From assembly GCA_028870995.1 (NCBI GenBank), contig JAGWOI010000002.1, positions 46,463 through 110,462 of the forward strand: 64,000 nucleotides of DNA, read 5' to 3'. The position numbers and the translations under genes were made by a program. The number at the start of each line of letters is the position of its first letter. Position 1 is the stretch's first letter. The notes below the pieces were generated by a model that was not told the origin of the DNA, did no database searches, and was given only the letters and a program-made list of their open reading frames with translations. This document shows positions 19,891-22,047 of the stretch, piece by piece. This stretch comes from Candidatus Omnitrophota bacterium. GTDB lineage: Bacteria > Omnitrophota > Gorgyraeia > Zapsychrales > Fredricksoniimonadaceae.

Positions 19891-22047
19891 ATGGCGGCAA
19901 AAATCATCACCATATTCGGCAATAAGGGCGGAGTCGGTAAGACCTTTATCGCCGTCAATACGGCCGCAGCCCTGGCCTTAAGAGGCCGCAAGGTGCTGGT
20001 CCTTGACTTGAACCTGCAGGCTTCCCAGGACATGTCGCGCATGCTGAACCTGCCGCCCACCAACTGTCTGGTGGACGTTTTGGCGGGCTTAGAAAAGCCG
20101 GGGGACGTGATACGGCAGATGTGCATTGCGCATGCCAGCGGGCTGCATTTTTTGCCTGCCGTCAAGTCGCCCAAGCAGATCGGGCACATCACCTCCGACA
20201 ACCTGCGTTTATTTTTCAAGAAGGCCGTCAATCTTTATGACTGTATCATCGTCGATGGCGGCAGCACCTTCAGCGAATCCTTCATCAGCGTCCTGGACTG
20301 TTCCAACCTTATTTTTCTGGTAGGTACGCCGGATATTTTATCGGTGTACCAGGTCAAAACCTGCCTGGATATTCTCCAGAGCCTGCATTATCCTCTGAAG
20401 ATGATGCATTTGATCTTGAACCGCGCCGAGAGCCGGGGAGGGGTGGCCTGGCAGGAAGTCAAAAGTGCCTTGGCTTGCGAGGTTTTTTCATTGATACCTT
20501 CGGACGGCAAGACCGTGGGGGTGGCCATTAACCGCGGCATCCCCTGCGTCATGGACGCGCCTAAGTCCAAGGTTTCGGAATGCTTTTTTGAAATTGCCAG
20601 CAGTTTGAACGACGATAAGCTTTATGTGCAGGCCAGTGATGTCTTACGGGTGCGCGCCAACGACGAGCCGCTTCAAAAAAGCGGTGCATTTTGGGAAAAG
20701 TTCGGCATCGCCCCGGCCCTTGCCGAGACTCCGACGGAATTCAAGAAAGACGAAGATGAGATTATCAAGGTCAAGCGCGCGGTTCATAACGGGCTTGTCG
20801 AGCGCATGAATTTGCAGAAAATTTCTCAAGAGGTCCTGAATGACCCCACCCAGGCGGCCAATTTGCGCCGTGCCGCGGAAAAGGTGGTGACCGAACTTTT
20901 GGCGGAAACTTCGGGGACCTTCCTTTCCAGCCACGAGGAGCGCGCCAAGATCGTCCGTGAGATTGTCAACGAGGCGCTGGGTTTAGGGCCGCTGGAGGAT
21001 TTCCTGGCGGACGAGACAATCACGGACATCATGGTCAACAACAAGGACGAAATCTTCATTGAAAAGAACGGAAAGATCCAACTGACCAACAAGCGATTTA
21101 TTTCCAACGACCAGGTCAGGGCAACCATCGACCGCATCATAGCACCCCTGGGCCGCCGCGTGGACGAGTCCACTCCCATGGTCGATGCCCGCCTCCCGGA
21201 CGGGTCCCGTATCAATGCCATCATCCCCCCGCTGTCATTGAACGGCCCTATGATCACGGTGCGTAAATTTTCGCAAGACCGCTACACCATCGATGATTTG
21301 CTGGGGCGCTTTCAAAGCCTCTCCCAGCCCATGGCGGACTTTTTGCATGCCTGCGTCATCGGCCGCCGGAACCTCATCGTTTCAGGCGGGACGGGTGCCG
21401 GGAAAACCACCCTGCTCAATATTATTTCGCAGTTCATTCCGGACAATGAGCGTATCATCACCATCGAGGATGCGGCGGAATTGCGCCTGGTCAAGACGCA
21501 TTGGGCCAGGCTGGAGAGCCGGCCGCCCAATATCGAGGGCCGTGGCCGCATCACCATCAGAGACCTTTTTATCAATACGCTGCGTATGCGGCCGGACCGT
21601 ATCATCATCGGCGAGTGCCGCGGCCCGGAAGTGCTGGACATGCTGCAGGCCATGAACACCGGCCACGACGGATCTCTGACTACCCTGCATGCCAACACCA
21701 CCAGGGACACGCTTTCGCGTATGTCGTCCATGGTCCTGCTTTCCGGCATCGAACTGCCTTTGCGCGCTATTTATGAGATGGCGGCTTCCGCCATCAACAT
21801 TATCGTGCAGATCAACCGTTTTTCCGACGGGTCGCGCAAGGTCACCCAGATTTCAGAGTTAACCGGCAAAATGGTGGACAATCTGCCCGAGATCAAGGAC
21901 ATATTTGTGTTTGTGCACAAGGGCGTCAATGCCGAAGGCCGCATCATGGGGGATTACGTGGCCACCGGCTATGTACCGAAGAGTTACGAAGATTTTGTCA
22001 CGCGCGGCATCCCCATCAGCAAAACCATTTTTGAACCGCCGGCTTGA
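19891..22047 (+). CDS. fused TadZ/CpaE-like ParA-family ATPase and TadA/CpaF secretion ATPase
   Basis: N-terminal 260 aa have the MinD/ParA deviant Walker A GNKGGVGKT. The C-terminal 430 aa are VirB11/CpaF-like (Walker A SGGTGAGKTTLLN, Asp box, His box TGHDGSLTTLHAN). Together they form a single 718-aa ORF. Confidence 0.85.
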   Translation: MAAKIITIFGNKGGVGKTFIAVNTAAALALRGRKVLVLDLNLQASQDMSRMLNLPPTNCLVDVLAGLEKPGDVIRQMCIAHASGLHFLPAVKSPKQIGHITSDNLRLFFKKAVNLYDCIIVDGGSTFSESFISVLDCSNLIFLVGTPDILSVYQVKTCLDILQSLHYPLKMMHLILNRAESRGGVAWQEVKSALACEVFSLIPSDGKTVGVAINRGIPCVMDAPKSKVSECFFEIASSLNDDKLYVQASDVLRVRANDEPLQKSGAFWEKFGIAPALAETPTEFKKDEDEIIKVKRAVHNGLVERMNLQKISQEVLNDPTQAANLRRAAEKVVTELLAETSGTFLSSHEERAKIVREIVNEALGLGPLEDFLADETITDIMVNNKDEIFIEKNGKIQLTNKRFISNDQVRATIDRIIAPLGRRVDESTPMVDARLPDGSRINAIIPPLSLNGPMITVRKFSQDRYTIDDLLGRFQSLSQPMADFLHACVIGRRNLIVSGGTGAGKTTLLNIISQFIPDNERIITIEDAAELRLVKTHWARLESRPPNIEGRGRITIRDLFINTLRMRPDRIIIGECRGPEVLDMLQAMNTGHDGSLTTLHANTTRDTLSRMSSMVLLSGIELPLRAIYEMAASAINIIVQINRFSDGSRKVTQISELTGKMVDNLPEIKDIFVFVHKGVNAEGRIMGDYVATGYVPKSYEDFVTRGIPISKTIFEPPA

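Follow-up and report, generated by a model that had tools for sequence, protein, structure and literature searches.

The tadZA gene and its product

The gene analysed here lies in a 64,000 bp stretch of DNA (the window) from Candidatus Omnitrophota bacterium (GenBank assembly GCA_028870995.1, contig JAGWOI010000002.1, positions 46,463 to 110,462 of the forward strand). This gene, here named tadZA, encodes a 718 aa protein in which a putative TadZ/CpaE-type ATPase domain precedes a TadA/CpaF motor ATPase. An original prediction, made from the sequence alone, had proposed that the two are joined in a single polypeptide, and this is borne out by an uninterrupted open reading frame (ORF): translation of 19891..22047 on the plus strand contains no internal stop. 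The stop-free frame begins at 19882, the ATG at 19891 is the first start codon available in it, and the alignment shows that this start residue is common to the homologues. The following features were assigned to the gene:

19891..22047, plus strand: tadZA, a single ORF of 718 aa (TadZ-like domain, linker and TadA/CpaF motor ATPase)
19891..20658, plus strand: TadZ/CpaE-type ATPase domain of ParA/MinD fold (residues 1-256; assigned from Pfam/NCBIfam, PDB search, bit scores, AlphaFold2 (AF2) and Foldseek)
19918..19944, plus strand: deviant Walker A motif GNKGGVGKT (residues 10-18; signature lysine K12, P-loop lysine K17)
20659..20754, plus strand: inter-domain linker (residues 257-288; AF2 predicted local distance difference test (pLDDT) below 50; variable in the alignment except for one motif)
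20689..20706, plus strand: FWEKFG motif within the linker (residues 267-272; short helix predicted at 266-270)
20755..22044, plus strand: TadA/CpaF motor (residues 289-718; assigned from phmmer comparison with PDB entries of CpaF, Foldseek and secondary structure)
21385..21408, plus strand: TadA Walker A motif GGTGAGKT (residues 499-506)

Pfam models for CbiA/AAA_31/ParA match residues 4-240 of the product and T2SSE matches residues 363-640 (201 bits against a cut-off of 24.9). Among the NCBIfam models, those for MinD match residues 5-247 and a TadA-family model matches residues 323-655 (E-value: 1e-95). The protein was modelled using AF2 with an alignment of 22 Omnitrophota homologues (64-86% identity). 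The TadZ/TadA junction was placed at approximately residues 257-288 because pLDDT is below 50 there and the helices of a three-helix bundle begin at residue 287. The resulting linker of approximately 30 residues is probably flexible.

The N-terminal domain is modelled confidently (pLDDT 70-94). Its best Foldseek match is PDB 3ea0 (template modelling (TM) score 0.91, root-mean-square deviation 2.1 Å, 239 columns), a receiver-less 245 aa ParA-family ATPase of Chlorobium tepidum that we take to be TadZ-like. This entry ranks ahead of FleN, FlhG and MinD, for which the TM scores are 0.73-0.88. By sequence, the best PDB matches are Aquifex MinD and 3ea0 (both approximately 58 bits, E-value approximately 7e-15), followed by FleN (54 bits). 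The 3ea0 match extends over residues 5-240 (E-value: 8e-15), but this protein is free-standing, has an atypical Walker A motif (KGGDGGS in the alignment) and is 23-24% identical to the tadZA product. Free TadZ proteins (products of the genes that directly precede tadA in other genomes) score a median of 77 bits and a maximum of 152 bits against the N-terminal domain, compared with 27 bits for the window's own Soj. The MinD models fall below their cut-offs (TIGR01969, 88 versus 202 bits; TIGR01968, 73 versus 213 bits). Because free TadZ proteins outscore MinD and Soj, the MinD models are under their cut-offs and the best structural match is 3ea0, the N-terminal domain is, on these comparisons, of the TadZ/CpaE type and specifically TadZ-like, as had been predicted.

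The deviant Walker A motif of the MinD/ParA type that had been reported for the N-terminus was located at residues 10-18, and its KGGVGKT (residues 12-18) fits the K/RGGxGxS/T pattern of TadZ/CpaE. Residues involved in nucleotide binding (K12, G13-G16, K17, D39 and D122) are invariant in the 22-sequence alignment. The Walker A type, D39, D122 and an NR(A/S)E motif are held in common with free TadZ proteins, and the canonical form KGGVGK[ST] is found in 20 of 55 of these. Residue 41 is Asn in the window protein and its nearest relatives, and Asp in most homologues and in Soj; the equivalent Asp of Soj and MinD is required for hydrolysis but not for dimerisation. N41 was considered as a special trait of the window protein; this was rejected because fused and free TadZ proteins alike commonly have Asn here.

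Free TadZ proteins are approximately 400 aa in length, with the Walker A motif at residue ~140-190 behind an N-terminal extension. In the tadZA product, the ParA fold begins at residue 4 (based on Pfam) and the N-terminal receiver-like domain is absent. The identification of the N-terminal part as TadZ thus stands for the ATPase domain but not for the whole protein, because the receiver-like domain is missing. Compared with Aggregatibacter actinomycetemcomitans TadZ and Caulobacter crescentus CpaE, the ATPase domain is homologous, but these are separate proteins with a receiver-like domain, whereas the window protein lacks this domain and is joined to TadA at the C-terminus of its ATPase domain.

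A complete TadA had been predicted at approximately residues 290-718. The C-terminal 430 residues match Caulobacter CpaF (PDB 8rkd/8rjf/9e24) with an E-value of 3e-113 using phmmer, compared with 2e-35 for FlaI and 6e-32 for VirB11, and CpaF entries are the top Foldseek matches of this part. In addition to the Walker A motif, it contains GECRG (residues 574-578, with the Walker B Glu) and HAN (residues 600-602, the His box), and all of these motifs are invariant in the 22-sequence alignment. The secondary structure of the AF2 model follows the layout of the motor, with a three-helix bundle (helices 287-363), an N-terminal domain and a C-terminal ATPase domain. Judged by these matches, the C-terminal part is a complete TadA/CpaF of the Tad branch of the T2SSE/VirB11 superfamily; it is orthologous to CpaF, which is its closest relative among solved structures. 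The two proteins share the ATPase motifs and the three-helix bundle, but differ at their N-termini: the 501 aa CpaF chain (9e24) aligns from residue 89, so that its first ~88 residues, which form a disordered region, have no counterpart in the window protein, and the latter instead carries a folded TadZ domain of 256 residues.

A separate observation on this family was made in the representative library, where five proteins (P0121, P0122, P0123, P0125 and P0128) have two to three tandem TadA/CpaF ATPase units in one polypeptide (for example, a 1,156 aa protein with three GGTGSGKT Walker A motifs). These could be covalently linked motor subunits or artefacts of gene calling or assembly.

Within the otherwise variable linker, the residues F267-W268-x-x-F271-G272 are invariant in the closer Omnitrophota homologues, and the junction is in frame throughout the alignment. 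Comparison of linkers showed that FWEKFG is absent from the distant Omnitrophota protein L003 and from those of Bdellovibrionota. Many free TadZ proteins end in short basic/aromatic C-terminal tails, such as KKGLFKLWARGK, KGLLKRAFNRFFGG and KKRFSLFG. Because these tails are similar, FWEKFG is most simply explained, at the level of sequence, as the C-terminal tail retained from an ancestral TadZ. A MinD-like membrane-targeting helix in the linker was also considered. Its position and invariance would fit, but the hydrophobic moment of the region is unremarkable (0.40-0.45, compared with a 95th percentile of 0.57), and we do not claim such a helix.

Conservation and distribution of the fusion

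Databases were searched for the same fused architecture, as had been suggested with the original prediction, and it was found repeatedly. A word-indexed protein search (clusters at 90% identity) identified more than 100 clusters that are 64-86% identical to the query over 99-100% of its length, with proteins of approximately 715-727 aa that all contain both sets of domains. These clusters derive from NCBI, JGI, ENA and Logan assemblies, and those with names are from Candidatus Omnitrophica/Omnitrophota. Both domains are highly conserved in the alignment, whose 22 homologues were taken from these clusters. In an exhaustive search of representatives at 50% identity, the best 150 were classified by phmmer domain calls; in at least 61 of these 150, which are 38-52% identical to the query, one protein contains the N-terminal domain and, after it, TadA. 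The named fused representatives are from Bdellovibrionales, Bacteriovoracia, Bdellovibrionota and Atribacterota.

GTDB species genomes were then scanned and 80 loci were individually checked at the ORF level. True single-ORF fusions were found at 12 loci: three assigned to Omnitrophota (L001-L003), five from Bdellovibrionota and relatives (L004, L005, L010, L013 and L018, the last a complete Bdellovibrio genome), two from further bacteria (L007 and L026), one from Elusimicrobiales (L030) and one from WOR-3 (L042). Separate, adjacent tadZ and tadA genes are present at 56 of the 68 non-fused loci (in Actinomycetota, Chloroflexota, Bacillota, Acidobacteriota, Planctomycetota, Nitrospirota, Pseudomonadota and others), and the other 12 have tadA with no adjacent TadZ-like ORF. 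Apparent fusions in Acidobacteriota, Actinomycetota, Chloroflexota, Pseudomonadota and other groups, with matches to residues 3-715, were rejected because the ORF check resolved each into two adjacent genes. The fusion is a minority architecture, yet it is widespread and conserved over several phyla. One of the fused loci (L001, contig CAYZPQ010000129.1) is labelled "uncultured Planctomycetales"; its fusion is 73% identical to that of the window and contains FWEKFG, and the contig is probably a mis-binned one from Omnitrophota.

The statement that TadZ and TadA are separate proteins in described Tad systems is outdated. In a TFF-superfamily survey (type IV filaments), TadZ is a separate component that binds ATP, has low ATPase activity and serves as a recruiting hub. 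A July 2026 preprint describes an essential "atypical TadZA fusion ATPase" encoded by tad locus 1 of Bdellovibrio bacteriovorus, and cites an earlier reference for this fusion (bioRxiv 10.64898/2026.07.08.737194). In that protein, TadZ and the linker are necessary and sufficient for binding to RomR, a polarity hub, and localisation is dynamic and RomR-dependent (bioRxiv 10.64898/2026.07.08.737194). The Tad complex of Omnitrophota/Velamenicoccia has been described, with TadB and TadC grouping with those of Bdellovibrionales, and the fusion is nowhere mentioned (Seymour et al. 2023). No explicit report of a TadZA fusion in Omnitrophota was found in the literature searched. The tadZA gene thus adds a member from Omnitrophota to the class of TadZA fusions that was described recently, and is not a new invention.

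The window protein and the fusion of Bdellovibrio sp. HCB288 align in one collinear BLASTP high-scoring segment pair (38% identity over 711 aa, E-value: 2e-165). In the Bdellovibrionota fusions (L004, L005, L010, L013 and L018), the Walker A motif is likewise near the N-terminus with no preceding receiver-like domain, and the Bdellovibrio gene also directly follows rcpC-rcpA. The differences are that overall identity is just 38% between proteins of two phyla, that the Bdellovibrionota linkers lack the FWxKFG motif of Omnitrophota, that tadB is downstream of the fusion in Bdellovibrio whereas a DUF192 gene is downstream in the Omnitrophota window and L002, and that RomR is a partner known for Bdellovibrio only.

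The ancestry of the fusion was assessed using a neighbour-joining (NJ) tree of concatenated TadZ and TadA (simple distance, 662 columns) that included 68 fused proteins and 55 free pairs. In the point tree, all 68 fused proteins are monophyletic, with 30% support for the exact node. In 38 of 40 replicates, the window protein and Bdellovibrio sp. HCB288 share a clade made up entirely of fused proteins, and support for the junction of the fused clade with the free pairs of Actinomycetota, Chloroflexota, Bacillota and Armatimonadota is 98%. These results favour a single origin of the fusions, although a tree of this kind leaves it unproven.

The Tad locus and its surroundings

The Tad locus extends from approximately 16.9 to 37.6 kb of the window, and tadZA occupies the usual tadZ-tadA slot. 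The order is rcpC, the secretin-TonB_C gene, an 87 aa ORF, tadZA, DUF192, a low-GC stretch, approximately eight Flp pilin genes, three large ORFs, tadB and tadC. The features other than tadZA are as follows:

16895..17752, plus strand: rcpC/cpaB (Pfam RcpC, E-value: 1.3e-23)
17749..19590, plus strand: rcpA/cpaC secretin with a C-terminal TonB_C domain (Pfam Secretin, E-value: 8e-38; TonB_C, E-value: 7e-11)
19577-19840, plus strand: 87 aa ORF with a signal-peptide-like N-terminus and four (E/D)KEF repeats
22044..22400, plus strand: DUF192 gene, the start of which overlaps the tadZA stop codon
24279..27297, plus strand: approximately eight tandem Flp-type pilin paralogs (51-276 aa; G/Q-x-x-x-EY-type processing motifs; weak Flp_Fap match)
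27090-35442, plus strand: three large ORFs, of 796, 926 and 981 aa, in the interval from the pilin genes to tadB
35815..36675, plus strand: tadB, T2SSF platform protein (Pfam T2SSF, E-value: 3e-17)
36677..37585, plus strand: tadC, T2SSF platform protein (Pfam T2SSF, E-value: 5e-18)

No separate tadZ was found in the window, where the only other ParA-like ORF is the chromosomal Soj. Genes for MinC/MinE or for flagella are absent from the context of tadZA. Despite the many pilin genes, no candidate for a prepilin peptidase (TadV/CpaA) was found among window ORFs of at least 150 aa. Bdellovibrio tad loci are similarly without a prepilin peptidase and share PilD (bioRxiv 10.64898/2026.07.08.737194).

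The secretin with TonB_C is a second fusion in the locus. It is kept at two other Omnitrophota loci (L002:4146-5969 and L003:696-2366), while the secretin of Bdellovibrio sp. has a BON domain in place of TonB_C. The 87 aa ORF between the secretin gene and tadZA has no Pfam match and could encode a pilotin or an RcpB/TadD-like accessory protein. A second Omnitrophota locus, L002, has the gene order of the window, with a DUF192 gene at the same place (L002:8174-8524); this position points to an accessory role of DUF192 that is conserved in this Tad system. The low-GC stretch between DUF192 and the pilin genes (22400-24100; GC content of 0.445, compared with ~0.54 in the flanks) encodes an 84 aa HTH_3 protein and a 351 aa protein with weak matches to transposase helix-turn-helix domains. 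It was possibly inserted into the Tad locus. The 276 aa pilin has a Cys-rich C-terminal extension. None of the three large ORFs has a Pfam match. The first contains many Cys residues and a pilin-like hydrophobic N-terminal segment (AKGQAITELAVFG), and the three may encode minor-pilin, tip or TadG-like components.

Just downstream of tadC is a giant stop-free frame on the plus strand (37804-63999) of more than 8,732 codons that runs off the window. In its first 4,900 aa, the sole Pfam match is a weak one to Peptidase_C39 (residues 255-317, E-value: 3.5e-6), and GC skew is strongly positive along the frame. Giant ORFs have been reported beside pilus and secretion genes in Omnitrophota, and this frame agrees with them. 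At the other end, approximately 11 kb upstream of the Tad locus, is the chromosome origin region (971-12984), with parB, parA and yidC on the minus strand followed by dnaA, dnaN, gyrB and gyrA. The Tad locus of V. archaeovorus LiM is also near the origin (12382-29832) (Seymour et al. 2023), and the arrangement in the window resembles it.

Proposed role of the fusion ATPase

Based on these results, we consider it likely that tadZA encodes a TadZA-type fusion ATPase that belongs to a Tad (tight-adherence, Flp) pilus machine of Omnitrophota. Its C-terminal two-thirds would be the hexameric TadA/CpaF motor that extends and retracts the pilus at the TadB/TadC platform, and the N-terminal third would be the ATPase domain of the TadZ/CpaE positioning protein, tethered through the flexible linker that carries FWxKFG. 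Each motor hexamer would then carry six TadZ modules in a fixed 1:1 stoichiometry. Because K12 and the P-loop residues are invariant, these modules may form ATP-dependent sandwich dimers through the signature lysine, as in other ParA/MinD proteins. They might also, or instead, form an outer cytoplasmic ring around the motor. In cryo-electron tomography of Caulobacter, CpaF is the inner cytoplasmic ring, and CpaE (with PodJ/PleC) has tentatively been identified as the outer ring; a tether of approximately 30 residues is compatible with TadZ modules that surround the motor. The modules could serve to anchor the motor, either at a landmark protein or at the machine's base, comparable to the interaction of Bdellovibrio TadZ and linker with RomR, so that positioning or assembly licensing and motor activity would be coupled in one polypeptide. 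The obligate coupling originally read from the covalent fusion is a reasonable inference from this arrangement, and such coupling of localisation or licensing to the presence of the motor could be of use where cells are very small and machines few.

Three other explanations were weighed. An indel or lost stop in this assembly alone might have merged neighbouring genes, as tadZ and tadA are adjacent on the same strand in most phyla and a single indel could in principle yield a merged ORF. The original prediction had itself singled out a frameshift or stop between the domains as the point to check, and the assembled sequence has no stop there. The ~720 aa ORF recurs both in complete genomes (L018) and across more than 100 independent clusters, the linker is kept in frame with an invariant motif, and a plainly merged tadZ would bring a receiver-like domain with it, whereas this N-terminal domain starts at residue 4. 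Because the ORF and the in-frame junction (nt ~20650-20800) are conserved across homologues, a private frameshift is excluded by the alignment, and the chance that the gene is an artefact of this assembly is negligible. The domain could alternatively be a MinD/FlhG/FleN-type ATPase that was recruited independently, giving a MinD-TadA chimera with MinD-like membrane cycling. MinD, FlhG and FleN have the same fold, with close structural matches, and a deviant Walker A motif; the motif of the window protein is of the canonical deviant form (KGGVGKT) with both lysines. The best NCBIfam models are those for MinD, JGI labels many homologues "septum site-determining protein MinD", the receiver-like domain is absent, and FWEKFG lies where the membrane-targeting helix of MinD would be. 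Against this, the MinD models are far under their cut-offs (88 versus 202 bits for the better of them), free TadZ proteins outscore every MinD (up to 152 versus 58 bits) and more than a third of them (20/55) have the canonical motif themselves. Moreover, the gene is exactly in the tadZ slot of a window with no second tadZ, the hydrophobic moment of FWEKFG is ordinary with similar tails on free TadZ proteins, and no membrane-targeting helix can be demonstrated. We regard this origin as very improbable.

The third explanation would make the N-terminal domain a catalytically inert pseudo-ATPase that has no role in positioning and acts solely to scaffold or stabilise the TadA hexamer. Low or absent ATPase activity is general among TadZ proteins, and Asn replaces the usual Asp at position 41 in the window protein and its closest relatives. 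The nucleotide-binding residues K12, G13-G16, K17, D39 and D122 are nevertheless invariant over the Omnitrophota homologues, which argues that ATP binding is retained and that ATP-dependent dimerisation is probable. In addition, TadZ and linker of the Bdellovibrio protein mediate a specific interaction with a polarity hub. An inert appendage is thus unlikely.

Several observations weigh against a TadZA machine that is positioned in the way set out above, or against its common descent with that of Bdellovibrio. As the receiver-like domain is absent, the mechanism of localisation may differ from that of canonical TadZ. The linkers of Bdellovibrionota are of low complexity, rich in Ala, Pro and Gly, and show no kinship with the Omnitrophota linker, and docking of the RomR type is therefore not simply transferable. 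Single-domain NJ trees, in which deep nodes have ~0% bootstrap support, do not resolve the deep relationships (23/50), and the deep phylogeny of the N-terminal domain with an outgroup is likewise an NJ tree. The Omnitrophota N-terminal domain scores higher against some free TadZ proteins of Terrabacteria (128-152 bits) than against the N-terminal domains of the Bdellovibrionota fusions (88-109 bits). Finally, the AF2 model is moderate overall (mean pLDDT 61.6, predicted TM score 0.42) with unreliable inter-domain contacts; the TadA part is modelled poorly from the 22-sequence alignment, and the packing of the domains was for this reason not interpreted.

A broader scenario can be put forward tentatively, as one that we think possible but would not expect to hold in full. 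A Terrabacteria-like tadZ-tadA pair would have lost the receiver domain and become fused in one ancient event, from which all TadZ-TadA fusions derive and which founded a sub-lineage of "self-positioning motors". Horizontal transfer would account for part of its later spread through Omnitrophota, Bdellovibrionota, Elusimicrobiota, WOR-3, Atribacterota and many other lineages. Several members of this proposed lineage would be ultra-small, predatory or epibiotic. The FWxKFG motif of Omnitrophota would serve in this scenario as a docking site for a landmark or membrane partner, comparable to the RomR-binding TadZ and linker.

For annotation, one consequence is that tadZ will be scored as absent from Omnitrophota Tad loci though its function is present inside tadA, and current pipelines are inconsistent on these proteins, naming them "TadA", "CpaF" or "MinD". 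This type of fusion is currently being studied by experiment, and the homologues supply a large number of naturally occurring sequence variants of it, including a lineage with a canonical Walker A motif and a conserved linker motif. Tad pili serve bacterial predators as machines for attachment and invasion. Omnitrophota, nanobacteria that have not been cultured, are thought to be predators or parasites. The link between the Tad systems of Omnitrophota and Bdellovibrio has hitherto been drawn from TadB/TadC trees only. That Omnitrophota share TadZA with Bdellovibrio, and carry it at the same position in the locus and beside a giant ORF, strengthens the link between these two predatory Tad systems.

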